Assembly: GCA_030425385.1 (NCBI GenBank)
Contig: JAUIAH010000012.1
Span: 1 to 64,000 of the forward strand
DNA from: Verrucomicrobiia bacterium
GTDB lineage: Bacteria > Verrucomicrobiota > Verrucomicrobiia > Verrucomicrobiales > DEV007
DNA: 64,000 bases
Direction of reading: 5' to 3'
Positions 2,125 to 46,384 of the stretch are shown here, one piece after another. Positions within the stretch are counted from its first letter, which is position 1; each line of letters opens with the position of its first letter. The notes beneath the pieces are model-generated. The model was not told where the DNA came from. It worked only from the letters and a program-made list of their open reading frames with translations, and did not search any database. The position numbers and the translations under genes were made by a program.

Positions 2125-2174
2125 ATAATGGGAAAGCAGTTGTCAAGATCAAGAGGTGGGTGTAGGTCCGGATT

Positions 2175-3212: not shown

Positions 3213-3642
3213 TAGAGAACCACAAATGGACACGAAAGAGAGCGGAGTGATGGAAGCTGAAGGGGTTGGAGGGAGGCCGCGTGGGGAGATGAAGAGGGCT
3301 CGAGTAGTCGCCAAGGCGCAGAGGTGTTGTTAGAGCGGATTGGTGAGTGTTAGAACCTTGAGTGAATGAAGGCGAATGATCATGTGGATAGGCCGTCTTC
3401 AGGGAAAACGGAAGGGCCCTGAAGTTTGGACCACAGATCATCACCGATGAACACCGATGGATTTGATCGGTGCTTTGGAATTTGTGAGGTTGGGTGGGGT
3501 GATAGGGAAGTACGAAAGGAAAGTGGGCGAGAGTGAGGAAGGCTCGCGCAGTGTTGTTAGGCGGAAAGAGTTCGTTGGAATCTCACGATTCACGACTGTG
3601 AGCCGCGTCTCTCCTCGAATGGAATGTGATGAGAGATTAGTG

Positions 3643-29723: not shown

Positions 29724-29783
29724 GCGTACTGTGAGGGGCGACAGGAATCCTGTCGCCCTCTGGTGACTGGGCTGCAGTGAGGA

Positions 29784-31838
29784 TTATCCAGCGATCTGCT
29801 TGAGCGCTTTGCCAGCATTCACGCCATCAAGTCCGAAGCGCTTGGCATTGTCTAACAAGCCCTGCAATTGCCCTCGCGTGTCGTCATCGTTGCAGGCAGT
29901 GATCATTTGACCGAGGGCAGCGCTGACACTGAGGTTCTTGAGGTCTTCTGTGGAGAAACCAAAGTCATCGATCCAGCGCTTTAGCTGACCACGGAAGTAG
30001 GCGGGATCTCCATTGAAGAAGGTTTCTTTGACATCGGTGAGGGCTTTGCTGTTATTCAGAGCCCTGTCGACCGCCTTGCCAGTGGTCACGGCTCCAGCGA
30101 TCTTGTCAAAGAAGGCGCTATCGCCGCCGATGATATCGACGTTAGCATTCTCGAGGGCTGTGCCCACGACTTCTGAGTGACGCGAGGCGATCTCACGTTG
30201 TGCTTCGATATCAGCCAGCTCGATCACTTTCCGCTTCTCTAGATCGAGGCGGAACTCCTCGTGTTCGCGTCCTTCGCCGTCGAATTGCTTCATGGCTCCC
30301 GCCTTCTCGGTGATGCCTTTGGCTTCTGCTAGGGCCTTCAACTCGATGACTTTCGCCTCGGCAGCACCTTGCTTTTGTGAAGCGGCGGCCTTGGCCTCGA
30401 TTACCTGAGCTTCGCCCAAGCCCGTGGCGGCAGATTCTGCGGCGGTGGCTTCCGCGAGGGTCTTCTTGGCAATCGCCGTCTTGTCGGCGGCCGCCTGCTC
30501 CGCTTCGGCACTGATAAGAATCTCATCGGCGTGCAACTCGGCTGCTTGCTTCTTCGCCTCGGCATCTTTCACGGTGCGATACAGTTCCTCATCGGCCTTC
30601 ATTTGCGCCGCTTCCTTCGTGGCCTCCGCTTCTTTGATCTGTTTCACGAGCGCTTCTTGCGCCTCCATCTCGGCAAGCGTCACTTTCACTTTCCGCTCCC
30701 GCTCGGCACCAGCAAAGGCCTCGGTATCCTTGATCTTCTCTTGCTCTTCTACGACCGTCTTCTCCACGGCGACGCGCTCTTTGATCACGTCTTGAATGTT
30801 CTTCTTCTCGACCTCAAGCGCCTTGTCGCGCTCGATCGCTTTTAATTCCGTCATCCGTTCGCGTTCGATTTCCTCTAACATGCGGTCACGCTCCACCCGT
30901 TCGGCTTCCACCACATCCGTGCGTTCCTTATTGCGTTCCGCCACGATGACCTGGCGTTGCTTGTTCTGGGTGGCGATTTCAATCTCCTCTTCCGTGGCGA
31001 TGCGTGCGCGCTCGGATTTGAGGCGCTCTTCCTGGGCGACTTTCTGGGCTTCGGCTTCCTCACGTGCTTGCACGGATAGAATCTCGCGTTCTTGCTTGGC
31101 GGTTGACTCAGCCAGCTGCCGATTCAATTCCAAGATGGCTTCTTCAGCTTCCACATCTTGCTGACGGATGACGCGTTCCTTATCGCGATCGATCTGGTTG
31201 GCCAGTTTCGCCTGTTCAGCGGTCAGATCCGTGATCTTCTTGATCCCTTCGGCATCAAGGATATTGTCAGGATTCAAGCTCTCGAGTGGGGTTTGTTCTA
31301 AATGGTCAATGGCGCAGTCATCGAGCACAAAGCCGTTCAGATCCGTACCGATCAGCTTGAGGATCTCTTCGCGGAAGGTGTCGCGCTCTTCGTAGAGTTC
31401 GGCGAATTCGAACCGTTTCCCCACCGTCTTCAGGGCTTCGGAAAACTTGGCGTCGAAGAGATCCTGGATCTCCTCTTGGCTAGAGGCGCGATCGCAACCG
31501 ATGGCGGATGCCACGCGTTTCACATCCAACTCTTCATTGTTCACCCTGACAAAGAACACGACTTTGATGTCAGCGCGCATATTGTCCTTACAAATGAGCC
31601 CATCTTTCCCTTGGCGGCTGATTTCGATGCGCTTCACAGAGATGTCCATGACCTCCGCCTTGTGAATGACCGGAATGACAGGGACACCAGTGAAGCAGAC
31701 TTTCGTCCCGCCCATGCCATTGCGAACGAGGGCTTCGCCCTGGCTCACTTTGCGATAGCACTTGATAATGAGGATGATGAGGCCGACGACCAAGAGGATG
31801 GCCACGGCGATGAGGACTTTGGCGACTTCAGCAGGCAT
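29784..31838 (-). CDS. Flotillin (SPFH/band-7 domain, YqiK-like) with a long Glu/Ala/Lys-rich coiled-coil region
   Basis: N-terminal TM VLIAVAILLVVGLIILII. SPFH block GEALVRNGMGG...VPVIPVIHKAEVMDISVKRIEI. Extended EA-rich flotillin repeats. The preceding gene is NfeD-like. Confidence 0.85.
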   Translation of the reverse strand: MPAEVAKVLIAVAILLVVGLIILIIKCYRKVSQGEALVRNGMGGTKVCFTGVPVIPVIHKAEVMDISVKRIEISRQGKDGLICKDNMRADIKVVFFVRVNNEELDVKRVASAIGCDRASSQEEIQDLFDAKFSEALKTVGKRFEFAELYEERDTFREEILKLIGTDLNGFVLDDCAIDHLEQTPLESLNPDNILDAEGIKKITDLTAEQAKLANQIDRDKERVIRQQDVEAEEAILELNRQLAESTAKQEREILSVQAREEAEAQKVAQEERLKSERARIATEEEIEIATQNKQRQVIVAERNKERTDVVEAERVERDRMLEEIERERMTELKAIERDKALEVEKKNIQDVIKERVAVEKTVVEEQEKIKDTEAFAGAERERKVKVTLAEMEAQEALVKQIKEAEATKEAAQMKADEELYRTVKDAEAKKQAAELHADEILISAEAEQAAADKTAIAKKTLAEATAAESAATGLGEAQVIEAKAAASQKQGAAEAKVIELKALAEAKGITEKAGAMKQFDGEGREHEEFRLDLEKRKVIELADIEAQREIASRHSEVVGTALENANVDIIGGDSAFFDKIAGAVTTGKAVDRALNNSKALTDVKETFFNGDPAYFRGQLKRWIDDFGFSTEDLKNLSVSAALGQMITACNDDDTRGQLQGLLDNAKRFGLDGVNAGKALKQIAG

Positions 31839-31873
31839 AGGTTTCTGGTGTTCGAGGTTGAGGTGGTTGGTGA

Positions 31874-32512
31874 TCAGGAATCGAGTTTGCGAACAATGTA
31901 TGTTTGCGCGTTGTCGAGCGTCTCCACGACGAGGGCGCGATCGCCCTTGCTGAGTGGCTTCTGGCCCTCGGAAATGCGGACGTGGAGGAGGAGGGGATTC
32001 CCCGATTCATCCTCACATTCGGCTTGTCCGAAGTCTTCGGTCACTTCACTTGTCTTGATGATGCAAGAGCGCCCCACGACGGGGCGATGTTTCTCGCCCG
32101 CACGGAGGGCGCGCATGAAGGGTTTCAGCGGTGTCGTCACCAACTTGGTGGCGAAGAGACACACGATGAAATTGCCTAACAAAAGTCCGGCAGCCAAGGG
32201 CAGAGACCCTTGGGGATTCAGGTAGTAATTGAGTAAGACCGACGTGCCCCACATCAAGGCGATGAGCACGGATAACAAGACCATGAGGGGGATCTCCCCA
32301 AGGTTGAAGAACCGCAGTAACCCTAACCGGAAACTGCTTCCATGGGCGTCCGCATCGGCATCGGCATCGAGATCCACATCGAGGTCGGGCTCTAACGAAT
32401 CGGTATCTGCGGCGCCGACGATCGTGAGCACCCAGAAGAGCACGACCAATCCTAGCAAGATGGTGAGCGGGAAATTCGGGAGTTTGAGAGCTTCGTGTAA
32501 GAGATCAGACAT
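31874..32512 (-). CDS. NfeD-like / YqiJ-like (DUF1449) membrane protein with a C-terminal OB-fold-like domain
   Basis: Three predicted TM helices followed by a ~80-aa beta-rich soluble C-terminus. It sits 35 bp upstream of the flotillin gene on the same strand, the canonical yqiJ-yqiK arrangement. Confidence 0.75.
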   Translation of the reverse strand: MSDLLHEALKLPNFPLTILLGLVVLFWVLTIVGAADTDSLEPDLDVDLDADADADAHGSSFRLGLLRFFNLGEIPLMVLLSVLIALMWGTSVLLNYYLNPQGSLPLAAGLLLGNFIVCLFATKLVTTPLKPFMRALRAGEKHRPVVGRSCIIKTSEVTEDFGQAECEDESGNPLLLHVRISEGQKPLSKGDRALVVETLDNAQTYIVRKLDS

Positions 32513-32732: not shown

Positions 32733-33413
32733 TTAGCTCCGTCGGCGGCGAAAGAGCAAGGAGGCTCCCAACAGTCCGAGAAGGCTCACGGAGGGCTCAG
32801 GGATGGCATCAGCCGCGCGCAACTCCACGTCGTCGAACATTGCCGACTGCGGATTGGCTTGAGCATCCATCCCGTCGACCATGCCGACGCGAACGACAGC
32901 GCTCGTGGCACCGGCGGGAGCCACCGTCGAGAGCGTGTAATTCTGCCAGCTTCCATCTTTGGGATGGGAATCGATGTTGCTGGATTCCATTGACAGGACG
33001 TTGTCTGATCCATCGAGGAAATCGACCGAGAAGAATGTGGACGCCGCTGTGTAATTGGCTTCCTGCTTGCTCCAGACGGATAGCTCGTAACTGAGACCAC
33101 CCATGACAGCGACCGTCTGAGAAGCGGTAGCGTTCGCAAGGGCATCGCCCGCGGCTTGCGCGCCTTCGAACGCTTTCAGCCATAGACCAACGCCCGGGTC
33201 CCCATTGGGATTGCTTGCCCAACCGGCATCTTGATACTGTGCGGAGAAACCCGTGCCATCTGGCTGATTCGCTTCCAAATTCCACACAGGATTGGATTGG
33301 CTGTTGGCGGTAGACATCTCGAAACCCGAATCCACGAGGATGTTCGTAGCGCCCATGGAGGAAGTGAGGCCCAAGGCTGCGAGGGCTCCGACAAGAGGAA
33401 GGGGTGATTTCAT
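32733..33413 (-). CDS. PEP-CTERM sorting-domain protein with an N-terminal carbohydrate-binding-like beta-sandwich domain
   Basis: Signal peptide. C-terminus ...AIPEPSVSLLGLLGASLLFRRRRS (PEP motif + TM + Arg tail). The N-terminal ~150 aa are paralogous to the N-terminus of the adjacent 1261-aa protein (NLEANQPDG.GFSAQYQ.AGWAS...GLWLKAFEG). Confidence 0.7.
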   Translation of the reverse strand: MKSPLPLVGALAALGLTSSMGATNILVDSGFEMSTANSQSNPVWNLEANQPDGTGFSAQYQDAGWASNPNGDPGVGLWLKAFEGAQAAGDALANATASQTVAVMGGLSYELSVWSKQEANYTAASTFFSVDFLDGSDNVLSMESSNIDSHPKDGSWQNYTLSTVAPAGATSAVVRVGMVDGMDAQANPQSAMFDDVELRAADAIPEPSVSLLGLLGASLLFRRRRS

Positions 33414-33475: not shown

Positions 33476-36400
33476 CTACTGGGAATTCTGCAAACGATAG
33501 AACCCCTTTTCCTGAGATACGCGGGTCGGCTCGCGGTCGAGGTAGACGCCGTTCGACGATTGTCCAACTTCTTGCCAATCAACGAGATCTGTCGAGAAAG
33601 CAATGCCAACGGATTCCTGGGCATCCAGCTCCAAGCGGATGCCGTCGACGGATCGCTCAATCGTTTGGATCTGAGGTATCCCTGGAGCCGAGCTTTCACC
33701 CCTCTCAAAGGCGATGAGGACGGGGCTGAAGCCTTCTGGCAAGGGGCCATTGACCACGGCATCCCATTCTCCCACCTGGCTTGCTCGGTAGACTTCTAGG
33801 GCGGCCCCGCCGGTGCGATTATACATCAGCATCTCTAGGCGATGCTCCCCGGCCTCCAGGTGAATGGTGCGCATGGTGTGATTGCGACCGCGATTGCCGT
33901 CGAATTCGATGATCTCCGTCCCGTTGATGCGAAGTTGGCCCCCGTCATCGGAGTTGAAACCGATCCCCCACGGTCCGGATTCCGCGACCACGAATTTCCC
34001 AACGGCATGCACGATGAAGTGGTCTCCTACCTCACCGTCGAAGAGCACATCGCCAGGAAGGCTAGCGGTATTCGCCTCGGTGTCCGTGAAATTGATCACT
34101 TCGTGAAGCGCCACCGTCTCAATCCCTGGCGCCCTTCCATCGAGCAGGGCGCGTGCATCTGCTAGAGATTGCACTTGTCCATCATCGCTCACAATGGTGC
34201 GCACGACAAAGCGGTTGGGCTGGCTAGCAGCCGAAAGCGGATCGACGTCATTGTCCAATTCGATCTTATCACTAAACCCATCGCCATCGGTATCTGCTAG
34301 TTTAGGATCAGTGAGAGTTTCTTGACGTTCAGTGAGATCATTCAAGCCATCGCCATCGGTGTCCGCATTGATCGGATTCAATTCGAGCGCGATCTCCTCC
34401 TGATCTTCGAGCCCATCACTATCAGAATCACGTGCCGTGGGATTCGTCCGATGCACCATCACCTCCTCGCCATCGGAGAGTCCATCGCCATCGGTGTCGG
34501 CCACCTTGGGATTCGTGACCAGGGTCTGCTCGTTAAGATTGGTGAGCCCATCATGATCGGGGTCGGCTTCAGGCTCTGCTGACAAATCACCAAAGTTCTC
34601 CATTTCCCAAGAATCACGCAAGCCATCATTGTCCAGATCACCAGCATCGCGAAGCAATGTCAGGGTGCCGTCTCCTGAAATCCCTTCATCCAATCCGAAG
34701 ATCGCGAGCAGGTCCGCGGCGTCAAAGGGGCCGTTGGACTCGACCACATCGGAAAGGCTGAAGCTGACGTCACCACCTTCCGTGAGTCCGATCAAGTCGC
34801 CCACAGCCACATCGTCATCTAGAATCAACTCGAAACCGGTGCCCTGCAATTGCAGGATGGCATTAGGGCTGGAAAGGGGATAAGCAAAGGTGAGGGCTCC
34901 GTTGGCAATGCGAATCACGCCCGTGCCGAGCGATCCAGGAGTTGTCCCCGTCGCATCCACGCCATCAAACCGCATTTCCCCAGAGAACTGGCTTCCTGCC
35001 CCTGACAGCATTACCTTGGCAGTGGTCTCGGGATCATCACCGGTGAAACGCACGGTCCCATTGCCTTGAAGCACCGAGGCGAGGTCCAACTCATGATCAT
35101 GCACGGCAACGTCCACATCGCCACTCAGCGTCAACACCCCTTCCAGCCGATTCGAATTGCCAACATCGACCATGGCATCACGAATCACCAAAGGCGCCGA
35201 AGCGGAGCCCTCATGGGCCAATGATAGAGTCATGTGAGGTCCTCGCACTTCAAGCAAGTCTCCATCAAATGGGCCCCGGGAACTCACCAAGGTATTGGTC
35301 ACTCCGCCAAGTGCCAAATATGTTTTGCCGGCAGTAGGAACCGCCTCATCTGCCCAGGTCGCCGCCACGTTCCAAGCACCGTCCGCACCTGCCACCGTCA
35401 CTGTGGGAGCGTCGTTGGCGTTGAGAGGATCTGTCTCTAACGCTAACTCCACATTGTCCGCATACTCGTCTCCGTCGGTATCGCGCTTGGCGGGATCCGT
35501 TCCAATCACATTGACTTCTTCGGGATCTGTGAGGCCGTCGCCATCGGTATCCACCATGGCTGGACTACTCCCATGTTCCGCCACCTCGGCGCCATCTTCC
35601 AAGCCATCGCCGTCCGAATCTCTTTCCGTTGGATTTGCCATGGCTGCCAACTCATCGCGGTCATTGAGCCCGTCGCTATCGGCATCGCCGGTGCCGTCGC
35701 GCGTGAGATCACCGAAGAAGAAGCGCTCCCGGAAATCATCCATGCCATCACTATCAGTATCCTCGGTCACCACCTGGTGAACGTCATATCCTGACAAGAG
35801 TTCATAGAATTCTTCCGTCACTTGGGGTGGCTCCGTTCCTTCATCCAGGACGAGCCGTCCGATAAAGAGACTCACTCCGGCACCGCCTGCCGCCTCCCAA
35901 TGGAGCAGTTCGAAGGTGTGCAATCCTGCCTCCAATTCCGTGGTGAGCACCGAATTCATCCGCGAGCGATTGCCGAAGGTTCCCACCAACTCGCCGTCGA
36001 CTTTCAATTCGAAGCCATCATCGCTATTCACCACGAAGGGGACGATGCCGCCTTCTTTAAGATAGAATTCTCCCGTGGCTAGGATCGCATAATGATCGGA
36101 TCCTTGCAAAGACACCTCGCCGTCCAAATCCGGATCGAAGAGCGGATATGGCCGCGAAGCGCTTTCGTAGATTGGCGGCGCTCCGCCATCATCGAAGTGC
36201 ACGAAGGGGACCGTGAACGTTCCGCGCCCCTCTGCTTCTTGATCTTCAAAGGAAGCCCGCGCCAAGGCCGCATCGGTGATCTCAACGCCCGTGCCATAGA
36301 CATGCAAGACATCGACCGTTCCCCCCGCGTAGAGAATCGATCCGGGGACACGATGCCTGCCCTCGGCAGCGATCACTTCCCCATTCTGATCCACTGCTTG

Positions 36401-37237
36401 AAAGACCCAGGGAATCCTCGCATCTGCCTCAAACGGTGTTTCTGATAGATAGGTGAATGCGGTTAGCGTTCCCTGTTGTGAATTCTCTAATGGCACGTCC
36501 TCGCCCCCGAAAGTGAGTCTTGCTGAATCGGGATCCACGGTGCTTCCCTCGGTATTCTCTACCACAATGCGAAACCGAGTCGTCCCTCCGCCCGAATCGA
36601 CCACTTGCGCTACCGAGGCCAGTTCGACGGCGGTGAGGCTGAAGTCATCAACCATCGCGGACTGCGGATTTGCCATGGCATTCACCCCACCGACCATGGT
36701 TGCGCGCGCCTGGAGTTCCGTGGTGCCCTCTGGCGCCGTGCCCTTCGCCGAGAAGAATTCCCAAGAACCATCGGCGGGATGTTTCCCGTTCAGCTCGTTC
36801 TCCACACTGGCAAGGATCTCTCCGGCGCCATTGAGAAAGTCCAGGGCAAGAATGGTAGAGGCCGAGCTATAGTTTGTCTCCACCCGCACCGCGGCGCGCA
36901 ATTCATACCCCTGCCCGGCCTCTCCCGGCACGCGTTGGGTGAGGGTGACTTCAGCCGCAGGCTCCGTCTCCGAGTTGCCACCTTCGAATGCCTTCAGCCA
37001 GAGCCCGATCCCTGCGGTGCCCGCTGGGTAGCTCGCCCAGCCTGCCGATTGATACTGCGCCGAGAAATTCTGTCCGTCTGGTTGATTGGCCTCCAGGGTC
37101 CAACTTGGATTCTCCTGTGAGGCCGGCTCAGAAGCCTCTAGAGAGGGATCTGCCAACAGATTCACCTGTGCCTGAGCGAGAACACTGGTCGCTAGGAGAC
37201 CAGACGAAATGATTAAGAAGGGGGCCTTGGGTCGCAT
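33476..37237 (-). CDS. Giant secreted surface protein (~1250 aa) with: an N-terminal CBM-like domain; two PA14 domains; two blocks of thrombospondin type-3 (Ca-binding DxDxDG) repeats; and a C-terminal FYRL-ending beta-sandwich module.
   Basis: Signal peptide MRPKAPFLIISSGLLATSVLAQA. PA14-like segments GEFYLKEGGIVPFVVNSDDGFELKVDG and GKFVVAESGPWGIGFNSDDGGQLRING. Repeated DTDGDGLSDGEE-type motifs. C-terminus ...FSTDLVDWQEV...GFYRLQNSQ. Confidence 0.7.
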   Translation of the reverse strand: MRPKAPFLIISSGLLATSVLAQAQVNLLADPSLEASEPASQENPSWTLEANQPDGQNFSAQYQSAGWASYPAGTAGIGLWLKAFEGGNSETEPAAEVTLTQRVPGEAGQGYELRAAVRVETNYSSASTILALDFLNGAGEILASVENELNGKHPADGSWEFFSAKGTAPEGTTELQARATMVGGVNAMANPQSAMVDDFSLTAVELASVAQVVDSGGGTTRFRIVVENTEGSTVDPDSARLTFGGEDVPLENSQQGTLTAFTYLSETPFEADARIPWVFQAVDQNGEVIAAEGRHRVPGSILYAGGTVDVLHVYGTGVEITDAALARASFEDQEAEGRGTFTVPFVHFDDGGAPPIYESASRPYPLFDPDLDGEVSLQGSDHYAILATGEFYLKEGGIVPFVVNSDDGFELKVDGELVGTFGNRSRMNSVLTTELEAGLHTFELLHWEAAGGAGVSLFIGRLVLDEGTEPPQVTEEFYELLSGYDVHQVVTEDTDSDGMDDFRERFFFGDLTRDGTGDADSDGLNDRDELAAMANPTERDSDGDGLEDGAEVAEHGSSPAMVDTDGDGLTDPEEVNVIGTDPAKRDTDGDEYADNVELALETDPLNANDAPTVTVAGADGAWNVAATWADEAVPTAGKTYLALGGVTNTLVSSRGPFDGDLLEVRGPHMTLSLAHEGSASAPLVIRDAMVDVGNSNRLEGVLTLSGDVDVAVHDHELDLASVLQGNGTVRFTGDDPETTAKVMLSGAGSQFSGEMRFDGVDATGTTPGSLGTGVIRIANGALTFAYPLSSPNAILQLQGTGFELILDDDVAVGDLIGLTEGGDVSFSLSDVVESNGPFDAADLLAIFGLDEGISGDGTLTLLRDAGDLDNDGLRDSWEMENFGDLSAEPEADPDHDGLTNLNEQTLVTNPKVADTDGDGLSDGEEVMVHRTNPTARDSDSDGLEDQEEIALELNPINADTDGDGLNDLTERQETLTDPKLADTDGDGFSDKIELDNDVDPLSAASQPNRFVVRTIVSDDGQVQSLADARALLDGRAPGIETVALHEVINFTDTEANTASLPGDVLFDGEVGDHFIVHAVGKFVVAESGPWGIGFNSDDGGQLRINGTEIIEFDGNRGRNHTMRTIHLEAGEHRLEMLMYNRTGGAALEVYRASQVGEWDAVVNGPLPEGFSPVLIAFERGESSAPGIPQIQTIERSVDGIRLELDAQESVGIAFSTDLVDWQEVGQSSNGVYLDREPTRVSQEKGFYRLQNSQ

Positions 37238-37385
37238 CGAACAATCACAACACGTTCGCATTCAACAGCAAGCGCTTTGTGAAGAGAATGTTTCGATGTG
37301 TTAGCGTGTGCCTGCCCTGTGAAACGAAATGTCCTGATTCAGTGGCTTGCCTTTCTTGGTAGGGGGCAGAGCGTCCTTCTGTCTC

Positions 37386-40300
37386 ATGATTGTGTATCTC
37401 CCTATCAAACGCCTCTCGCTACTTCTCGCGTCCATCCATGCCAGCTTGCTCTGTCTCGCTCACAGCCAGGGCTTGGCCGATGGGTTGGTCTCCTATTGGC
37501 CACTCGATGATGGCCTTCCCTCACGCATGACGACTTCCATTAGCGATCTGCAAGGTGCCAATCCTCTAACATTAGACGCCTCGGATCCCGAATCTGCCTG
37601 GCTGACAGGGCCTTCGGCTAAGTCGCGCGGGGCGTTGCAAGTAGATGGCGAAAGCCGCTACGTGGTCGTGCCTTCATCGGAGACGCTCGATCTCGGCACG
37701 AATGCGGTGACCCTATCGGTTTGGGTGAACCTTGCGCAGTTACCCGCGGATCTGCCCGATGCCTTTGGCGGCATCTTTGATTCGGCGAATGATGCCTATG
37801 TCCTCTACCTCGATCGCGGTGCGAACGAGTTGCGTTTCAAAGTCACGGCGGACGGAGCGCAGCGTCCTGGAATCCCTGCCGCAGATCTCACGGTGGGCGA
37901 ATGGATGCACGTCGTCGGAGTCTACGATGGCGTGGAGTCTCGCATTTATGCCAATGGTGAATTGAAAGACACCCACGCAGGACCTACAGGCCAAGTGATC
38001 AGTGGGCAAATCGCCGGTATCGGTCGTAATGGGGACGAGGATCGCTATTTCCTTCAGACGGCAATCGACGAGATGGCGCTTTGGAATCGAGCCCTCACTG
38101 AATCTGAGATTCAGACTATCAGAGACACAGGGCTTGTCTCGATCGATGATTCGGAGGCTGATGGCATGCGAGATTCCTGGGAAATGGAGACGTTTGGCAA
38201 TCTCGACAGCGACGGGACGGGCGATGGCGACAACGATGGTCTCACTGATCTGGAAGAGTTCACCCACGGCACACTTCCAGACACGGCGGACAGCGACATG
38301 GATGGTCTGCAAGATGGCGACGAAGTGGCGACCTATGGTTCGGATCCACTGCACGCGGACACCGATCGCGATGGGATTTCTGATAGTGACGAAGTTGCTA
38401 GTAACACCAGCCTCACACGTGCAGACACGGATGGCGACGGATTAACTGATCTTGAAGAAGCCACCGTCTATCAAACCGATGGCACCCTGGCCGATAGCGA
38501 TGGTGATGGATTCACGGATTCCCAAGAATTGGCCGCAGGCACGGATCCCAATGTGCAGGGCGATTTGCCGGGCAGCAATACGGTCTTTCTGGTGCGTTCG
38601 GCGATGGCCGGGGAAACGTGGATGGAACCAAGCTTGTGGTCGGATGGGGCCGCGCCCCAAGCTGGAAAGCACTATGTGATCCCTGGATTCGGTGCCGATG
38701 AATTGGTGGTCATGGCCGAAGGCGAAACGACCTTTCCTGGCGATTCGCTTGCGGTCTTCACAGGTACTCAATTGCGCCTTTCTCAAGCGGGCACAGGCGT
38801 GATCACCATCCCCTCGCTCGTGCTCAATGGGGGGCAGTTGGTGATCGAGGGCACCACCGCATTGACCCTCGCCGGAGAGGTCACCGTCACAGGAAACACG
38901 CAGATTGCGTTAGGAGCCGAAGGCGACGCTGTCACCCTAGCATCCACCCTTGCAGGTGATGGTCAGTTGACCGTTCGGGCGCCCATGGGTGAAACGACTC
39001 CCCGCACCTTTATCCTGGCGGGCTCCGGGAGCACCTTTGCAGGTGATCTCATCTTTGATCACGTTTCGCTCAATGCCAGGACGCCTGGATCTCTTGGCAA
39101 TGGCAACGTCCACATGATCAGCAGCAGCATTGATATCGATTACAATGCCTACAATCCTGAATCCAGCTTAACCCTTGCGGGTGCTGGTTCTATCATTGTT
39201 CTTGATCAATTCCTGATCTTCAAAGCGCTTATCATCGCAGAGACCACATTTCCTGATGGCACCTATGACTTTGCAGCTTGGGAAGCGCTTGATCCGAATG
39301 CCGCCGATTTCATCATGGACGGCGGGGGAGCCATTGTGATTGGCGGAGATTCTGACAATGATCGGCTCCTAGATGCGTGGGAATTGCGCTATTTCCCCGA
39401 TCTTAGCACCTCAAGTGGCGGGGATGATCCTGACGGGGACACGCTCAGCAATGAGCAAGAATTCATTGCCGATACCAATCCTACCTTGCTCGACACGGAT
39501 GCCGACACGCTTTCTGATGCCGATGAAGTCAATACGCACGGCACGAACCCGCTGGTGAGTGATACGGATGGGGATCGCCTAACGGATGCCGAAGAACTCG
39601 CTCGCGAAGAGCCCAGCAATCCTCTGCGTGCGGACACGGACGCTGATGGTCTCTCGGATGGCGACGAAGTGCTCGACTATCTAACCAATCCTCTCCTTGC
39701 CGATAGCGATGAGGACACATATGCCGATGCCTTTGAGATCCATGATAATGGCGACCCATTGGATGCCAATGTGATCCCGCGATTGGCGCAATTGAACCTT
39801 CTCGACGGACTCGTTTCCTTCTGGACATTCAATGATGGGCTCACTCGGGCAGACACCTTGTCCATTGCCGATGTCCAAGGGCGCAATCATTTGCAACTCG
39901 TCTCACCAGATGCTGCCGCCGCTTGGCTATCAGGTGAACTGGCCAAGAATGACGGTAGCCTGCGCATTCTCGGAACCGAAACTTATGTGCCCGTTCCGAA
40001 CACGCCGAGCCTTAATCTCACGACGGATGCCGTCACGCTTTCGGCTTGGGTGCAGCTTGATGAATTGCCCAGTGCCATGGCGAGTAGTTTCGGTGGGATC
40101 TTCGATTCTCGCAATGACGCTTATGTGCTCTATTTGGATCGTGGCAATGCGGAATTGCGTTTTAAAGTCACCGCAACGGGAGCCGAGCGCCCAGGCATTC
40201 CCGAGTCAGAATTGACTCTTGGAGAGTGGCTGCACATCGCCGGTGTTTACGATGGCGCGGCGCAGGAATCCCGCATTTATCTAAATGGGCAATTGATGGA

Positions 40301-41642
40301 TACGCACCAGAACCCTACCGGCACGGTGATCCCAGATCAGATCGCTGGGATCGGCAGAAATGGCGATGAAGATGCCAGTCACTTTCACGGCGCCATTGAC
40401 GACCTCGGCATCTGGAATGTGGCGCTCACATCCACACAGATCAATCAACTCATGGAAGGTCCTTCCGATGTGGACCTAGACACGGATGATGATGGCTTGC
40501 TCGATTCCTGGGAGTTAGCCTCCTTTGGCAACCTCGATCAAGATGCGTCTGGCGATCTTGATAATGATGGCCTCGACCATGCCGCAGAGTTTATCGCGAT
40601 GACGCATCCCAACCAGAGTGATTCCGATAACGATGGCGTTCTCGATGGCGAAGAGCTTGACTTTGGCACAGACCCCCTTGATGCGACGAGTGCGCCAGTG
40701 GTGATCACTGAGGGGCTGGGCAAGGGATTGGTGGCTTATTGGCCACTCGATGATGGCGTCGAGGATCCTAGCACCACATCGATTGCCGATGAGATTGGCC
40801 TCTCGCCACTAACGCTCACCTCACCGGAGCCAGCAAACGCATGGCTTACGGGCGATACCGTTCCGACCGCTGGCGGTGTGCGGGTGAATGGCGTTGATGA
40901 CTATATCGTCATCCCGAACACGCCTGCTTTGGACATTCCAGGGGACACCATGAGTCTTTCCATGTGGGTTTTGTTAGATCAGCTTCCCTCAGAGATCGAA
41001 AGTGGCTTTGCCGCCATCTACGATTCTTCAAATGACGCCTACGTGTTCTATTTGGATCGCAATAACGGTGAGCTGCGTTTCAAAGTCACGGCGACGGGAG
41101 CCGCTCGTCCAGGCATTCCAGAAGCTGAGCTCACCACTGGCGAATGGATGCACATCACGGGTGTGTATGATGGCCCCACTGGGGAAGCCCGCATTTATAA
41201 GAATGGCGTTCTTATGAGCACGGTTGGTGGGGTTAGTGGAATCGTTCGGGCAGGTCAACTGGCCGGTATTGGACGTCAAGGTGATGAAGAAGCCAATTAT
41301 TTCTCCGGTGGTGTCGATGACGTTGCCGTGTGGAAACGTATCCTTCTCCCCGATGAGATCATGGACCTTGCCAATGGGGCATCGATCCTAGGGGCGACGG
41401 AACCGGATCCCGATTTCAAAGTCACTTCGATTGCCATTGATGACGCAGGCATCTCCTTGCAATGGGACGCGATTCAGGGGCGTCACTACACCGTTCAATA
41501 CACCGAAGACCTGAGCAGCAACCAATGGTCTGACGTTGTTTCCGATCTCGCCGCACCGATGGATGGTCCAATCACATTCACTGATACCGAGGTGAGAGGG
41601 CTTGAGATTGGATTCTACCGCATTCTTGAACAGGCCAATTAG
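37386..41642 (+). CDS. Giant secreted surface protein (~1418 aa) with three LamG/Concanavalin-A-like lectin domains, each followed by TSP3-type Ca-binding repeats, and a C-terminal FYRI-ending module
   Basis: Signal peptide after start at MIVYLPIKRLSLLLASIHASLLCLAHS. Three ~210-aa units share the pattern GLVSYWPLDDG...AVTLSVWV...FGGIFDS.NDAYVLYLDRG..ELRFKVTA.GA.RPGIP...GEW.H..GVYDG...RIY.NG. Runs of DSD.DG..DGEE repeats. Divergent from the 1261-aa gene. Confidence 0.7.
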   Translation: MIVYLPIKRLSLLLASIHASLLCLAHSQGLADGLVSYWPLDDGLPSRMTTSISDLQGANPLTLDASDPESAWLTGPSAKSRGALQVDGESRYVVVPSSETLDLGTNAVTLSVWVNLAQLPADLPDAFGGIFDSANDAYVLYLDRGANELRFKVTADGAQRPGIPAADLTVGEWMHVVGVYDGVESRIYANGELKDTHAGPTGQVISGQIAGIGRNGDEDRYFLQTAIDEMALWNRALTESEIQTIRDTGLVSIDDSEADGMRDSWEMETFGNLDSDGTGDGDNDGLTDLEEFTHGTLPDTADSDMDGLQDGDEVATYGSDPLHADTDRDGISDSDEVASNTSLTRADTDGDGLTDLEEATVYQTDGTLADSDGDGFTDSQELAAGTDPNVQGDLPGSNTVFLVRSAMAGETWMEPSLWSDGAAPQAGKHYVIPGFGADELVVMAEGETTFPGDSLAVFTGTQLRLSQAGTGVITIPSLVLNGGQLVIEGTTALTLAGEVTVTGNTQIALGAEGDAVTLASTLAGDGQLTVRAPMGETTPRTFILAGSGSTFAGDLIFDHVSLNARTPGSLGNGNVHMISSSIDIDYNAYNPESSLTLAGAGSIIVLDQFLIFKALIIAETTFPDGTYDFAAWEALDPNAADFIMDGGGAIVIGGDSDNDRLLDAWELRYFPDLSTSSGGDDPDGDTLSNEQEFIADTNPTLLDTDADTLSDADEVNTHGTNPLVSDTDGDRLTDAEELAREEPSNPLRADTDADGLSDGDEVLDYLTNPLLADSDEDTYADAFEIHDNGDPLDANVIPRLAQLNLLDGLVSFWTFNDGLTRADTLSIADVQGRNHLQLVSPDAAAAWLSGELAKNDGSLRILGTETYVPVPNTPSLNLTTDAVTLSAWVQLDELPSAMASSFGGIFDSRNDAYVLYLDRGNAELRFKVTATGAERPGIPESELTLGEWLHIAGVYDGAAQESRIYLNGQLMDTHQNPTGTVIPDQIAGIGRNGDEDASHFHGAIDDLGIWNVALTSTQINQLMEGPSDVDLDTDDDGLLDSWELASFGNLDQDASGDLDNDGLDHAAEFIAMTHPNQSDSDNDGVLDGEELDFGTDPLDATSAPVVITEGLGKGLVAYWPLDDGVEDPSTTSIADEIGLSPLTLTSPEPANAWLTGDTVPTAGGVRVNGVDDYIVIPNTPALDIPGDTMSLSMWVLLDQLPSEIESGFAAIYDSSNDAYVFYLDRNNGELRFKVTATGAARPGIPEAELTTGEWMHITGVYDGPTGEARIYKNGVLMSTVGGVSGIVRAGQLAGIGRQGDEEANYFSGGVDDVAVWKRILLPDEIMDLANGASILGATEPDPDFKVTSIAIDDAGISLQWDAIQGRHYTVQYTEDLSSNQWSDVVSDLAAPMDGPITFTDTEVRGLEIGFYRILEQAN

Positions 41643-41730: not shown

Positions 41731-42642
41731 TCACTCTGCGAGGCTCACTTCCACGCGAAGCAGTTGCGTGAATGCCGATATCGGAAGATCCCATTCCGTC
41801 GCTCCGCCTTCGGCATCATCTGCTAGCGTGAAGCGATCCAGTTCCACCCAATGCTGGCCGGTGGGGCTGCCTAACAAACGGTAAGTGCGTCCGGGAAGTG
41901 TTTGAAACTCGACACACCCCACGCCGGGTTCATCTTGGCGCATCGTGATGCGATCAATGCCAAAGCGCGACCGCCGATCATTGGGAGCGGTTCCCGCCGC
42001 AAACTCCTGACGCAGTGTCTGACCGTCTCCATCAGCATCCTCGTCAGCGTTGCGCATGGCGAAGGCTTCTTCAAAGGCATCAGGCAAGCCGTTGGCATTG
42101 CGATCAGGGCCCGACCGATCGAAGAGAGCACGCTGGGGTCTATCTGGATCGCCCTCCAAAGGCTCGTAGATCAGGGTGGCCGCCGCAAAGCTGAAACTGA
42201 CATTCTCAGAAGGTGACTGCGCGTGCACCATGTGCACACGGTGGTCGACTACTTGCACGTCTTCGAGAAGGAATTGCACGGTTTCCTCTGAGCGCTTGTT
42301 CTCCGGTCCCAGATAGACCAGGGTGAGCTTTGGAAAGACACGTCCTTCTGCGAGGGCCTCCACGAGTTTGGGGGTGGCTTTGTCTAACGGACGCACAACG
42401 GAGAACGTCTTGCCGATCGTAGGAACGCGTCTTCCTTCGCTCGGGACGCTGCTTTCCAAGTCTAACTGATGACCAAAGGCCTCGACGGCCATCCAGCCTT
42501 GCCATGCCTCTGGCACGCGGTCGCTTTCAGCGGTGAAGGCGTTGTCGTCGCTCTCCAGTTTGAGATAGCCTGTGGGCAGGGCCTTGGCCCCGAGGGGGCA
42601 GAGGAGCAAGAATGCCAGGGCGTTGAGTGAGACCGCTTTCAT
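41731..42642 (-). CDS. Secreted Hcp-like (T6SS tube-protein fold) domain fused to TSP3-type repeats and a C-terminal LRVEV-ending beta-sandwich module
   Basis: Signal peptide MKAVSLNALAFLLLCPLGAKA. Hcp-like blocks GYLKLESDDN...EAWQGWMAVEAF, RPLDKATPKLVEALAEGRVFPKLTLVY and VQFLLEDVQVVDHRV...ENVSFSFAAATLIYEP. Then DRNANGLPDAFEE...DEDADGDGQT and the shared C-terminal module. Confidence 0.6.
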   Translation of the reverse strand: MKAVSLNALAFLLLCPLGAKALPTGYLKLESDDNAFTAESDRVPEAWQGWMAVEAFGHQLDLESSVPSEGRRVPTIGKTFSVVRPLDKATPKLVEALAEGRVFPKLTLVYLGPENKRSEETVQFLLEDVQVVDHRVHMVHAQSPSENVSFSFAAATLIYEPLEGDPDRPQRALFDRSGPDRNANGLPDAFEEAFAMRNADEDADGDGQTLRQEFAAGTAPNDRRSRFGIDRITMRQDEPGVGCVEFQTLPGRTYRLLGSPTGQHWVELDRFTLADDAEGGATEWDLPISAFTQLLRVEVSLAE

Positions 42643-42689
42643 GATCGTATGGTGCTTGGATTGGATTGGATTGGATTTGAAGGCGGGGC

Positions 42690-43292
42690 TTATTTCACTT
42701 CCCGAAGTTCTTCGCGTGCGAGGATCACGAGTTCGTCAGCTTCTCGTAGGGAGACACCTTCCTCGACTTTCCATGAATAGGAGACTTCCTCGGATGGGCG
42801 CCCACTGGCATCGTAGGTCGTGTAGGTCCACTCCACCTTTTCGTAGTTGAAGCTTACTTCCTCCATGGGTACCTCGTTTCCTGCGGCACTCCCATTCACC
42901 GAATAACTTGTGACGAGGACATTGGTCAGTTTGATCTTCAAATAGACGGCTTTCTCTTCTCCCCGTGTGAGTTCCAACTCAGCTTCTGGAATCACTTCTC
43001 CTGTGAGTAGGGCTCGTGCGAGCAAGGGCGATGATTTGTCGAGTTCCTTGACGCATTTAAGGTCCTCTATCACGGCGGCACCCCGACGGCGAGTTGCCCC
43101 TTCGCCCATATCTGGGCGGTGCATGGCTTGGCTGAAAGAAGCGATTTCGATCCAATCCTTGTGGTGGTTATCATTCGATTCGCCCTTGATATCGCCGAGT
43201 TTCAGATAGCCCGCTCCGGAAGCGGCGGAGAGGAGCGTGCCCATGGCGATCACGGTGAGAAACAGTTTGGAGGCGGTTGCTTTGGTATTCAT
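42690..43292 (-). CDS. Secreted Hcp-family (PF05638-like) protein with Sec signal peptide
   Basis: Signal peptide MNTKATASKLFLTVIAMGTLLSAASGA, then GYLKLGDIKGESNDNHHKDWIEIASFSQ, ELDKSSPLLARALLTGEVIPEAELEL, YLKIKLTNVLVTSYSVNGS and EEVSFNYEKVEWTY. These align block-for-block with canonical Hcp1 (FIKIGDVKGESKDK.H..EIDVLAWSWG; IDKSTPNLMMACSSGKH...; YLIITLKEVLVSSVSTGGS; NVTLNFAQVQVDY). Confidence 0.65.
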   Translation of the reverse strand: MNTKATASKLFLTVIAMGTLLSAASGAGYLKLGDIKGESNDNHHKDWIEIASFSQAMHRPDMGEGATRRRGAAVIEDLKCVKELDKSSPLLARALLTGEVIPEAELELTRGEEKAVYLKIKLTNVLVTSYSVNGSAAGNEVPMEEVSFNYEKVEWTYTTYDASGRPSEEVSYSWKVEEGVSLREADELVILAREELREVK

Positions 43293-43492
43293 GACAGGAA
43301 TGTGTTTGTAGTTTGGTTGGAAGAGTGGCGGGCCGTGTTTGGTGACCCGCACGTGGTTACCCCCTTTCAATGCAAACCGATTTCGAAAGGTACACGATTT
43401 CTGCCCATGCCTTTCGGAGAAGAGGGACGTTGGAAATCAGGTTTTAGTTTAGGATGGCCCGATCTGGGCTAGGTTGTGATTCCCCCCTATCA

Positions 43493-44125
43493 ATGGCTGA
43501 TCAGCGATACGTCACCCGTCCCACGCTCCTGTTGCGCTTGCGAGATCGCGAGGATCAGCATTCGTGGACGGAGTTTGTGGAGATCTACGGGCCGCTGATT
43601 CATCGTTTCGCCCTCAGTCGTGGGGTGCCTCACCATGATGCGGCGGATATCACTCAGGATGTGCTGCGAAATGTGTCTCGGGCGATGCAGCGGTTCGAAT
43701 ATAACCCGAAGAAGGGGTCGTTCCGTTCCTGGCTATTCACAGCCGTGCGGCGCGAGATCGGGGGCGCGGCGGAGAAACAACGGCGCAAGCCGGGAACGGC
43801 GGGACCGGATGATGCCGATGCCTACTTGCGGCAACTTCCGGACGAACAGGACACCTTTGATTGGCATGGCGACTACCAGAGGCGTCTGGTGAGTTGGGCC
43901 ATGGCGAAGATCAAAGCGGAGTTTGCTGAGAATACTTGGGGTGCTTTTCTGGCATTGGGTCTCGAGGGCAAGAGTGCGCAAGAGGCATCGGAAGCGCTCG
44001 GAATCACGGTGGGCAGTGCCTACGTGGCCAAGTGTCGCGTGCTGAAACGGCTGACTGAGATGATTCGTTCGGTGGATGATGAGGAATGGGAGGTGGACCT
44101 GATTCGCTCGGAGGGGCGCGGCTGA
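43493..44125 (+). CDS. ECF-type RNA polymerase sigma factor (sigma-70 regions 2 and 4)
   Basis: Region-2 block FVEIYGPLIHRFALSRGVPHHDAADITQDVL and a C-terminal region-4 HTH; ATG at 43493. Confidence 0.8.
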   Translation: MADQRYVTRPTLLLRLRDREDQHSWTEFVEIYGPLIHRFALSRGVPHHDAADITQDVLRNVSRAMQRFEYNPKKGSFRSWLFTAVRREIGGAAEKQRRKPGTAGPDDADAYLRQLPDEQDTFDWHGDYQRRLVSWAMAKIKAEFAENTWGAFLALGLEGKSAQEASEALGITVGSAYVAKCRVLKRLTEMIRSVDDEEWEVDLIRSEGRG

Positions 44126-44170
44126 CGAAATTCATCTCTCGGGCGTAAGGTTTGCCTGCAGCAGAGCCTA

Positions 44171-46384
44171 TTGTTTCATGTGAGCGTGCCCGTGCCATCC
44201 GCCCCATGTCCTGAGAAGTCTGTCCTGACAGATCTCCTGGAGGGGCGTCTCTCCGCTGCGGAGGAGGCGCGTTGCGAAGCGCACGTGGCCGAGTGCTCTT
44301 TGTGTCAATGTGCGCTCGATGCCATGGCGTCTGGTGCGTCCATGGATGGCTTTGCCCTCCGGCAAACAGTGCCTTCCGATGAGGATGTGCGCATCAATGC
44401 GATCTATCAAGGTGGCTCGGAAGATTGGCGTGTGGTGCTCGAACCGAAGCCTCCAGGGCAGTCTGTTCGCGCCTTGATTGGAATGCTAGGATCTTACGAG
44501 ATTGTTTCTCATCTCGCCTCGGGTGGCATGGGCACGGTCTTTCGCGGGTTTGATCCCGGCTCATCGCGCGACGTGGCGATCAAGGTGCTGGCACCGCGCC
44601 TAGCAGCCATCGATTCCTCTCGGCGGCGTTTCTTGAGGGAGGCACGTGCGGCGGCTTCTCTGGAAGACGAGTATATTCTCCCCATCTATCGAGTGCAGGA
44701 CAGTGGTCCTTATCCTTACATTGTCATGCCCCTCAACACGGGTGGCACTCTTGAGGATCTTGTACGTTCACAAGGTCCGTTACCCTTTGAGGAGATTCGC
44801 CGGATCGCTCTCGGCATTGCCAAGGGCTTGCGAGCGGCCCATGCGGCTGGGATCATCCACCGTGATTTGAAGCCGGCTAACATTCTCCTGCAAGGAGACC
44901 GCATTCGCCTGGCCGATTTCGGATTGGCGCGGGTGCAGGATACGCCTCAGCTGACCCTGCCAGGTTCTGTTCCAGGTACTCCGGAATTCATGGCACCCGA
45001 GCAGATCGAGGGCTTGCCGGTGAATCATCGCGCCGATCTCTTCGGCCTGGGGTGTCTCTTGCAATTCATGGCAACGGGCGAGTCTCCTTTTCAGGCAGGC
45101 TCGGTTTCCGCTATCTTGCGGTCCGTGGTCTCGGAGGCGCCTGCGAAGATCACGAGAGAACAACCTGGCTGGTTTTCGAGCGTCCTCGAACGCCTTCTAG
45201 AGAAGGATCCGGATCAACGCTGGCAAACTGCCGATGACGTGATTCAGGCCTTGCAATCGCAGACAAACAAGCGCCGAAGACGAGTTTCTAGACGAGCTGT
45301 CTTGTTAGGAGTAGCGGGTGTTGTCTTGATGGTGGTAGGGGCGCTCATCGCGCCTTTCCTCCGATCCCAGGAGGCGCCTGATCCGGTAACGGTAGCCGAG
45401 ACAGGGATGGGATTCGACACCATTGAGGAAGCCATCGCGCAGGCGCCTTCGGGATCGACTATCATCCTCCAAGATGGGTTATACGAAATTGCTTCGGCTC
45501 TCACACTCTTTCAGCCACTACGGTTTGAAGCGGCTAAGAAGGCGCAACCAGTCTTACGAAGTTTGGCTGTCGACGGCAAGATCTTCGATGCCTATCATGA
45601 TCTCACTCTGGACGGACTAACGCTACGGCACACCTTGCGCGACTTGCAGAAGAGCCGCTCGCTCGTGCAGGCGCGGCAAGGCATCACGGTGCGTCACTGT
45701 CACCTGGAACAGATTTGGAAGGGGGCTGGGAAGCCTGTGCCCTTTCCTGCCGCCATCTACGCGTGGGGCCCGGTGGATGTGTCTCACACCGTCATTGATG
45801 CGACTGCCGGGTGTGCGATCTTCTTGAATGCCAACGAAACGGTTGAGCCTGTTGTTCCCATTCGCGTCGAGCACTCGGCCATCGCCGCAGTGCGCGGGTT
45901 CTTTCTCACAAGCCCGAAACGAGCCGTCACCTGGGACATTCAGCTCCGAGAGAATCATATCGTTGCTGGGGCGTTTGCTAGTTTAGGTGATCACAACTTG
46001 GGCGTCGCTGATTGGGATTTGACACGCTGTCGGATCGAAGCTGCAAGCATGCTCATGGTTCGCGATCCCTGGGTGGACTTTCTAGCGCACACGCTGCCAC
46101 GGACGTCGTGGGACGGGCGGGGCAATGTCTATAGCATGACGCGCTTTGTATGGGCTTGGGAGGGCCGACCGAATGACCCCGCGCTCTTGGAAGATCTCGC
46201 TGGGTGGCTGCAGCTGTGTCCACAAGCGAGTGAGATCAACAGCCACCAATCCGAAGCGCTACTCTTCCTGGATGACCGTCCACAGGACTATCGGGCTCTC
46301 CGCGAGCACTTCAAATCCTGGCTGCCTATCACTGGAGAGGCCCTTGGATTCAAGCCAAACGAGGTGGGGACAAGCGCTCGCTAA
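44171..46384 (+). CDS. Ser/Thr protein kinase with N-terminal anti-sigma-type zf-HC2 motif, one TM segment and a large extracytoplasmic beta-helix-like domain
   Basis: H-x3-C-x2-C motif EAHVAECSLCQ. Kinase subdomains GGMGTVFRG...AIKVL, HRDLKPANILL, DFGLA and APE. TM VLLGVAGVVLMVVGALIAPFL. Start codon uncertain (TTG 44171 / GTG 44180). Confidence 0.8.
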   Translation: MFHVSVPVPSAPCPEKSVLTDLLEGRLSAAEEARCEAHVAECSLCQCALDAMASGASMDGFALRQTVPSDEDVRINAIYQGGSEDWRVVLEPKPPGQSVRALIGMLGSYEIVSHLASGGMGTVFRGFDPGSSRDVAIKVLAPRLAAIDSSRRRFLREARAAASLEDEYILPIYRVQDSGPYPYIVMPLNTGGTLEDLVRSQGPLPFEEIRRIALGIAKGLRAAHAAGIIHRDLKPANILLQGDRIRLADFGLARVQDTPQLTLPGSVPGTPEFMAPEQIEGLPVNHRADLFGLGCLLQFMATGESPFQAGSVSAILRSVVSEAPAKITREQPGWFSSVLERLLEKDPDQRWQTADDVIQALQSQTNKRRRRVSRRAVLLGVAGVVLMVVGALIAPFLRSQEAPDPVTVAETGMGFDTIEEAIAQAPSGSTIILQDGLYEIASALTLFQPLRFEAAKKAQPVLRSLAVDGKIFDAYHDLTLDGLTLRHTLRDLQKSRSLVQARQGITVRHCHLEQIWKGAGKPVPFPAAIYAWGPVDVSHTVIDATAGCAIFLNANETVEPVVPIRVEHSAIAAVRGFFLTSPKRAVTWDIQLRENHIVAGAFASLGDHNLGVADWDLTRCRIEAASMLMVRDPWVDFLAHTLPRTSWDGRGNVYSMTRFVWAWEGRPNDPALLEDLAGWLQLCPQASEINSHQSEALLFLDDRPQDYRALREHFKSWLPITGEALGFKPNEVGTSAR

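Follow-up and report, generated by a model that had tools for sequence, protein, structure and literature searches.

Two adjacent genes in the genome of an uncultured member of the Verrucomicrobiales encode members of the Hcp family that begin with Sec-type export leaders. The textbook hallmarks of Hcp, the tube protein (TssD) of a type VI secretion system (T6SS), are the lack of a signal peptide and dependence on a contractile sheath. The genes, HcpS and HcpL, lie side by side in the 64,000-nucleotide stretch that we analysed (hereafter the window; positions 1 to 64,000 of contig JAUIAH010000012.1 from a Verrucomicrobiia bacterium). Comparison with homologues indicates that the leaders are real, conserved Sec-type features and not start-codon artefacts. 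We propose, with a probability of about 0.55, that HcpS and HcpL form a two-gene operon of T6SS-independent, Sec-exported Hcp family members in which HcpL acts as the targeting or tethering subunit. Although the family and the fold are known, this is not so for export via Sec, for the arrangement of these proteins in pairs and fusions, or for the role outside the T6SS that is implied. A literature search for signal-peptide-bearing or tandem Hcp proteins found no description of either, although such absence is not proof of novelty. Source annotations name the leader-bearing homologues simply ‘type VI secretion system tube protein Hcp’ and, to our knowledge, any protein that belongs to PF05638 is entered in databases as a T6SS tube protein. 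The two genes, the spacer between them and the parts of their products (lengths in amino acids, aa; model confidence as predicted local distance difference test, pLDDT) are as follows.

42690..43292, minus strand: HcpS, a leader-bearing Hcp of 200 aa counted from its ATG (open reading frame (ORF) call, Pfam, AlphaFold)
43215..43292, minus strand: predicted HcpS signal peptide, residues 1-26, MNTKATASKLFLTVIAMGTLLSAASG, followed by AGYLKL (hydrophobicity, (-3,-1) rule)
42756..43214, minus strand: HcpS Hcp domain, residues 27-179 (homologue identity, conserved motifs, model strands)
42693..42755, minus strand: HcpS C-terminal tail of ∼21 aa, VSLREADELVILAREELREVK, past the canonical Hcp end (pLDDT <50)
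42643..42689, minus strand: HcpS-HcpL spacer of 47 bp, containing (TCCAA)x4.4 and no terminator-like site
41731..42642, minus strand: HcpL, 303 aa, with leader, divergent Hcp domain, TSP3-like linker and C-terminal beta-sandwich (Pfam, orthologue alignment)
42580..42642, minus strand: predicted HcpL signal peptide, residues 1-21, MKAVSLNALAFLLLCPLGAKA, followed by LPTGYLKL (best 10-residue hydropathy 2.6)
42160..42570, minus strand: HcpL Hcp domain, residues 25-161
41977..42105, minus strand: HcpL TSP3-like motifs of Ca-binding type, residues 180-222, DRNANGLPD..., DEDADGDGQTLRQEFAAGTAPND (invariant D/G in the orthologue alignment)
41734..41967, minus strand: HcpL six-strand C-terminal beta-sandwich, residues 226-303, ...LPGRTYRLLGSPTGQHW...QLLRVEVSLAE (model strands 229-301, pLDDT 84-91)

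Hcp fold and export leaders of HcpS and HcpL

Both proteins have the Hcp fold, as the original prediction, made from the letters of the window, had proposed. HcpS spans the full Pfam T6SS_HCP profile (PF05638; E 1e-37, 129.7 bits, cutoff 23.5) and passes TIGR03344, the NCBIfam TssD model, with 83 bits against a cutoff of 58.9. Its Hcp domain shares 45-49% identity with leaderless T6SS Hcps and keeps the TRRRG loop and ELDKSSP motifs. HcpL also scores above the T6SS_HCP cutoff (E 6.9e-13, 49.4 bits). AlphaFold models built on homologue alignments have a pLDDT of 82.6 for HcpS, with strands spanning residues 26-175, and 75.4 for HcpL. Solved Hcp structures are the best structural matches of both models; Foldseek with the HcpS model matched Hcp1 (1y12/4w64) at E 1e-15.

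Leaders were called with our own script, which combines the Kyte-Doolittle (KD) hydropathy of the best 10-residue window with the (-3,-1) rule, and with conservation among homologues. The HcpS leader has a best 10-residue mean of 2.2 and a predicted site at A-S-G/A-G-Y-L-K (the slash marks cleavage; A at -3, G at -1). For HcpL the corresponding mean is 2.6 and the site A-K-A/L-P-T-G-Y, and the leaders of its orthologues end ...LLHTASA/AQQIY. A lipoprotein reading of HcpL, with Cys15 in LLLC as the modified residue, was ruled out, given a Leu at -1 and the absence of this cysteine from the orthologues.

To place these leaders among relatives, we used 68 HcpS matches from a collection of 5.8 billion proteins together with the HcpL set. 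Two classes of homologue emerge. Thirty-one proteins are leaderless, ∼160 aa long, and start MAAYIKF; 33 are leader-bearing and 177-216 aa long, and in these a hydrophobic core follows basic N-terminal residues. Leader-bearing forms thus make up about half of the closest HcpS homologues, and the leader is kept as a feature in all 33 although its sequence varies. An AxA/AxG site lies exactly two residues ahead of the strand-1 Y/F in 31 of 36 leader-bearing homologues, and the HcpS site is in register with it. The predicted cleavage product would begin A-[A/G]-[Y/F]-[I/L/M]-K, just as leaderless relatives do once their Met is removed. The original prediction had claimed Sec-type signal peptides on both proteins and had called the redeployment unusual. 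Leader conservation argues for the first claim. The second is weakened: the case is no one-off, given how common leaders are among the closest relatives of HcpS.

A misassigned start, which would undo the argument, was also considered. The HcpS ORF has an alternative GTG start at 43352, with a Shine-Dalgarno-like GAAAGGGGG upstream, and a 220-aa gene call from it is on record (P0179, identical). The A/C-rich DNA ahead of the ATG at 43292 resembles that of orthologues. With either start the hydrophobic core and the cleavage site are retained. Moreover, no ATG, GTG or TTG occurs between the HcpS hydrophobic core and strand 1, and the gene therefore cannot give a leaderless Hcp; no alternative start removes the leader. 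As a control, the leaderless P0028, 45% identical to HcpS, belongs to a complete T6SS cluster, where ClpV and VgrG flank it; a stop codon upstream and an AGGAG site confirm where it starts.

T6SS core genes are missing around the leader-bearing proteins. When TssC, TssE, TssF, TssG, ClpV, VgrG and PAAR of a relative were compared with the 64-kb window by tblastn, only the two Hcp genes matched, and Pfam scans of 42 window ORFs, both Hcp genes included, found no further T6SS family; the original prediction had likewise seen no core gene in the window. The gene content is instead typical of the Planctomycetes-Verrucomicrobia-Chlamydiae (PVC) group: PSCyt2/PSD1, DUF1501, a sulfatase, a CotH-LTD protein and a PEP-CTERM protein. 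No T6SS core gene was found within ±10 kb of seven leader-bearing loci, and the contigs of the inspected leader-bearing homologues include long ones of 419, 299, 94, 47 and 40 kb. In a crude neighbor-joining tree, whose topology we do not rely on, leader-bearing and leaderless Hcps are interleaved, which suggests repeated gain or loss of the leader.

These observations bear on the simplest alternative, that HcpS and HcpL are no more than orphan hcp genes of a T6SS whose cluster lies elsewhere in the genome, with leaders that are start-codon artefacts or uncleaved extensions. Orphan hcp genes distant from the main T6SS cluster are common in Proteobacteria, HcpS passes TIGR03344 and shares 45-49% identity with T6SS Hcps, and only 64 kb of the genome was seen. 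Nonetheless, we find this explanation barely credible. It must contend with a leader kept in 33 homologues despite sequence variation, with an AxA site fixed in position, and with the lack of an internal start for a leaderless, intact Hcp. A hydrophobic Sec leader would, moreover, draw the protein away from the cytoplasmic sheath and baseplate, and the fusion of HcpL to a module of exported proteins (next section) makes no sense for a tube subunit.

The HcpS-HcpL pair and the terminal module of HcpL

HcpL is scarce. A word-indexed search gave seven matches and an exhaustive search ∼10 representative clusters, while a genome scan found full-length copies in five Verrucomicrobiales metagenome-assembled genomes (CBDDAB01, CBDBEZ01, JANQJH01, CALKOM01 and CALLLI01). 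Its architecture is kept in the orthologues P0070-73, P0080, P0087, P0094 and P0108, in a fixed order: a leader, a divergent Hcp domain, a disordered linker with two DxDxDG TSP3-like motifs, ‘PNDRRSRFGI’, and a six-strand beta-sandwich ending LTQLLRVEV.

The TSP3 repeats that the original prediction assigned to HcpL are borne out in part, as one clear and one degenerate motif. The pattern DxDxDGxT...E...GT.P is visible by alignment, and in tblastn the TSP3-like region gave matches of 40-52% to TSP3-bearing Verrucomicrobiota proteins. The window copy nevertheless falls below the Pfam threshold: its stretch DADGDGQTLRQEFAAGTAPND has no match to TSP3_bac (PF18884) even at E<=10, while orthologue P0070 has PF18884 on record. 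The window motif has L in place of the orthologues’ N (LTNREE in orthologues).

The C-terminal module of HcpL, a beta-sandwich, had been predicted to be shared with the giant adhesins encoded beside the pair, and this holds at the level of profiles. BLASTP of the C-terminal 78 aa of HcpL against the C-termini of both giants gave no alignment. The genome scan showed that many large Verrucomicrobiota proteins end with TSP3 followed by ‘..GKxYxV..S.DL..W....FYRV..P’, and hhalign of an HcpL-tail profile against a giant-tail profile that includes both window giants as rows gave a probability of 93% (E 3.5e-7, 47 columns). The last strand of the HcpL module reads LLRVEV and not FYRV. On the strength of this profile comparison, HcpL shares the lineage-typical terminal module of exported Verrucomicrobiota proteins. 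No Pfam or NCBIfam model covers the module, which we consider a candidate sorting or anchoring signal. Like the type IX secretion system (T9SS) C-terminal domain and PEP-CTERM, it is a small terminal module on many large exported proteins of one lineage; the likeness is positional only, and a sorting role for the ‘FYRV’ module is putative.

The module is ∼75 aa long and usually has a TSP3 repeat before it. It occurs in the window at 33476-33700 (minus strand), 41400-41642 (plus strand) and 41734-41967 (minus strand), and elsewhere at C-termini in L016-L024, L032, L039 and L040. The CotH-LTD protein at 61907-63955 (LYLRVQV) was not counted as a carrier: hhalign gave 12% probability against the giant-tail profile and no match to the HcpL-tail profile.

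A leader-bearing HcpS stands directly ahead of HcpL, at a spacing of 47-62 bp, in all five loci for which upstream DNA is available (the window, L001, L007, L044 and L047). Pair-bearing loci with a named organism belong to the Verrucomicrobiales. In the window the spacer is 47 bp and lacks a terminator-like site, so the two genes are a probable operon. The spacer repeat reads as a perfect (TTGGA)x4.4 on the plus strand (42656-42677), just upstream of the HcpL start; we set it aside as a phase-variation tract, as orthologous spacers and leaders are A/C-rich without repeats.

The HcpS-HcpL pair is the conserved unit and its neighbours vary. TSP3-bearing giants adjoin it in the window and in L001 only; in L007 and L044 the neighbours are a PSCyt1/WD40 protein, an unannotated ∼800-aa protein and a glycosidase, and the L047 contig is too short to show flanking genes. 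This variation does not support a functional link to the adjacent giant adhesins, which had been part of the original prediction, and speaks against the idea that HcpS and HcpL are dedicated chaperones or adaptors for the LamG/PA14/TSP3 giants. That idea could point to two Verrucomicrobiales loci, the window and one more, in which the pair adjoins such giants, and to the C-terminal module common to HcpL and the giants. We give it little credence: the flanks in two other loci are unrelated, and adjacency is expected by chance because such giants are abundant in these genomes. Leader-bearing Hcp homologues, which had been suggested as a search target, turned out to be numerous, but their linkage to giants is not conserved.

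Paired HcpS proteins have a further feature. Tails similar to the HcpS tail are present in the paired orthologues P0003, P0006 and L044 and absent from orphan and T6SS Hcps. HcpL-paired HcpS proteins mostly carry such a tail, 20-30 aa long, of low model confidence and bearing a short hydrophobic patch (LVIL, LVII or IVHLI; P0003, P0006, P0009, L044:9304-9948). Judging from its sequence distribution, the tail could be a putative docking peptide.

Leader-bearing Hcps beyond the pair and the case for rings

We propose that the signal peptide on each protein would direct it across the inner membrane via Sec, and that signal peptidase I would cut at AxA/AxG, leaving HcpS with A-G-Y-L-K... as a native first beta-strand, as comparison with leaderless relatives suggests. 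Outside the cytoplasm, the Hcp domains would form Hcp-type rings, probably mixed HcpS/HcpL ones. We infer mixing because the gene pairing is conserved and because a two-paralogue heterohexamer, Bacteroides fragilis Hcp2-Hcp3 (PDB 9vnd), exists. That structure is a precedent for two paralogues in one ring, but it is part of a T6SS and cytoplasmic, whereas mixing of HcpS and HcpL is deduced from gene pairing alone. The flexible, Ca-binding-type linker and the beta-sandwich of HcpL would then take or tether the ring to wherever the large exported proteins go, with the envelope, the surface or the extracellular space as candidate destinations. There it would serve as a scaffold or binding platform and not as a projectile.

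Support for ring formation comes from the identity and motifs that HcpS shares with T6SS Hcps and from relatives of HcpL. An exhaustive phmmer search with its mature Hcp domain against 1.84 billion representatives gave 94 matches, comprising HcpL orthologues, many single-domain leader-bearing Hcps and, as the best matches, long tandem-Hcp proteins. Domain counts with a purpose-built hidden Markov model showed that at least 15 representative clusters of non-T6SS architecture have six Hcp domains in tandem, no more and no fewer, which recur every 153-192 aa, in most cases every 160-190 (P0076-P0079, P0083, P0085, P0086, P0097, P0107, P0109, P0112, P0113, P0122, P0134 and P0161). Nine of the 15 carry an N-terminal ‘LExLExRxLLA’ motif, which we take to be one of planctomycete secreted proteins, and some have additional HExxH-like or dockerin-like regions. 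The gene context of one six-domain protein, P0079, was inspected and is non-T6SS. As six is the number needed for a covalent pseudo-hexameric ring, these proteins are indirect evidence that ring formation is kept on export; by their sequences, they may be single-chain pseudo-hexameric Hcp rings.

Other exported architectures include a leader with two Hcp domains and PEP-CTERM (P0091) and a leader with Hcp and an FYRV-type tail that lacks TSP3 (P0103, P0129). Proteins of this kind invite a reading in which the Hcp fold is a monomeric beta-sandwich block of secreted or adhesive proteins that forms no ring. P0089 and P0091 have two to three Hcp domains with PEP-CTERM or another tail, P0090 and P0157 likewise have more than one Hcp domain, and the Hcp domain of HcpL is strongly diverged. 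We nonetheless consider a ringless fold unlikely, since exactly six tandem domains in 15 independent clusters are hard to explain without six-fold assembly, and HcpS keeps the conserved core of T6SS Hcps.

Exported rings might instead be periplasmic decoys or sponges that bind competitors’ Hcp-dependent effectors or tube fragments and so confer broad immunity. Hcp rings are known to bind effectors in the lumen. The leader-bearing Hcps are closest to T6SS Hcps of Planctomycetes-labelled records and keep the lumen-loop TRRRG, and many are orphan single genes in varied contexts. A sponge would leave unexplained, however, the TSP3 linker and surface-type C-terminal module of HcpL and the enzymatic or dockerin-like extras of the six-domain giants, and no effector or immunity genes lie near the pair in the window or the inspected loci. 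A decoy role therefore strikes us as distinctly improbable.

Exported Hcp rings, as opposed to these alternatives, may constitute an unrecognised class of T6SS-independent extracytoplasmic scaffold, most visible in Verrucomicrobiota and planctomycete-type proteins. This broader class, to which we give slightly less than an even chance, would take three forms: Hcps that stand alone and have a Sec leader; the HcpS/HcpL pair of Verrucomicrobiales, with a surface-targeting module on one subunit; and covalent pseudo-hexamers of six tandem domains, some with protease-like or dockerin-like domains. None of the four rival explanations fits all of these architectures as well as exported rings do.

Several points weigh against the proposed exported operon. 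HcpL reaches 33.4 bits with TIGR03344 and so fails its cutoff, and its Hcp domain is just ∼20-25% identical to HcpS. The hydrophobic core of the HcpS leader is only moderately hydrophobic, and a true start at GTG 43352 would put an unusual 29 aa before it. Our T6SS survey of the source genome spans 64 kb, which leaves room for a T6SS elsewhere. Paired HcpS proteins do not form one group in the crude tree. The homology of the HcpL tail to the giants’ module rests on 47 aligned profile columns. Finally, the structure models are of monomers, and both the rings and the mixing of HcpS with HcpL are putative.

Two further sets of exported Hcps lie apart from the pair. In one subfamily (L004-L006, L046; P0032, P0054), the gene after each leader-bearing Hcp encodes a protein of 914-922 aa whose Pfam matches, to Cytochrome_C554 and TPR, are weak or faint. 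In L004-L006 and L046, this subfamily lies near CotH and RtcB genes, a second conserved exported-Hcp neighbourhood. The other, P0005 (L002, L003), is an orphan leader-bearing Hcp with a leader ending ...VSAQ, on a contig that encodes Por_Secre_tail (T9SS) proteins. These proteins make the contig probably Bacteroidota, so exported Hcps would not be limited to PVC bacteria.

Flanking genes, known systems and significance

The genes and regions flanking the pair are as follows.

33476..37261, minus strand: neighbour giant of 1261 aa with TSP3 and PA14 and a C-terminal ...GFYRLQNSQ beta-sandwich (Pfam TSP3_bac, PA14)
37347..41642, plus strand: neighbour giant of 1431 aa with three LamG domains, TSP3 repeats and a C-terminal ...GFYRILEQAN beta-sandwich (Laminin_G_3 E 7e-83, TSP3_bac E 5.5e-26)
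43293..43453, no strand: divergent intergenic region between HcpS and the extracytoplasmic function (ECF) sigma gene (ORF positions)
43454..46384, plus strand: ECF-type sigma factor (43454-44125), then zf-HC2 and Ser/Thr kinase (44171-46384) (Pfam Sigma70_r2/r4_2, Pkinase, zf-HC2)

In the product of 44171-46384, divergent from HcpS, the N-terminus is a zf-HC2 domain of anti-sigma-like type, fused to a Ser/Thr kinase that a long C-terminal region follows. We found no sigma-70-like promoter in the intergenic region 43293..43453. We considered whether the divergently oriented sigma-factor and kinase genes regulate the pair and set this aside, as the linkage is missing in the orthologous loci L001, L007 and L044.

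Other features of the window lie farther away. A 226-aa protein (32733-33413, minus strand) starts with a Sec leader and ends in a clear PEP-CTERM tail, PEPSVSLLGLLGASLLFRRRRS; near its N-terminus it is similar to the corresponding part of the PA14 giant (‘NP.W.LEANQPDG..FSAQYQ.AGWAS’). Three consecutive genes at 24768-32512 (minus strand) encode a 1651-aa protein with DUF3686, DUF7902 and an AAA ATPase and two membrane proteins, one of 684 aa that matches no Pfam family and one that is YqiJ_N-like. Directly upstream of a 345-aa ORF (2175-3212, plus strand), a 23-bp unit is repeated perfectly in tandem, x3.9 (2035-2123); the ORF encodes a Y1 transposase domain of IS200-like kind, which may belong to the repetitive extragenic palindrome (REP)-associated RAYT type. 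Positions 2001-4000 show an extreme GC skew of +0.36.

HcpS and HcpL can be set against several known systems. From the T6SS tube protein Hcp/TssD (PF05638; for example P. aeruginosa Hcp1, PDB 1y12) they differ by a predicted cleavable Sec-type leader and the lack of nearby T6SS genes. In addition, HcpL has its TSP3-like linker and beta-sandwich and falls under the TssD cutoff, and HcpS has its ∼21-aa tail. Tube proteins of phage tails and extracellular contractile injection systems (Pvc1, T4 gp19, lambda gpV) are far more distant than Hcp, leaderless, and assembled in the cytoplasm on a baseplate. In Hcp-ET proteins, N-terminal Hcp1 domains are fused to C-terminal toxins (PMC3482391). They resemble HcpL in having an N-terminal Hcp domain and a C-terminal extension, but they have no signal peptide and the T6SS fires them together with their toxin domains, whereas HcpL starts with a leader and its extension is of surface type and not a toxin.

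The analysis highlights an uncurated C-terminal module on many large exported Verrucomicrobiota proteins. If the proposed role is correct, surveys of genomes and metagenomes could no longer rely on hcp genes as T6SS markers, for Verrucomicrobiota and the Bacteroidota-like contig at least. The ring fold, which is used as an engineering scaffold, would also have natural extracytoplasmic and single-chain-hexamer versions worth solving. One would then have to ask what purpose a 40-angstrom ring serves in the envelope or at the surface of bacteria with unusual cell plans, and the fold, so far known solely from a projectile tube, would gain a second use as a ring platform outside the cell membrane.

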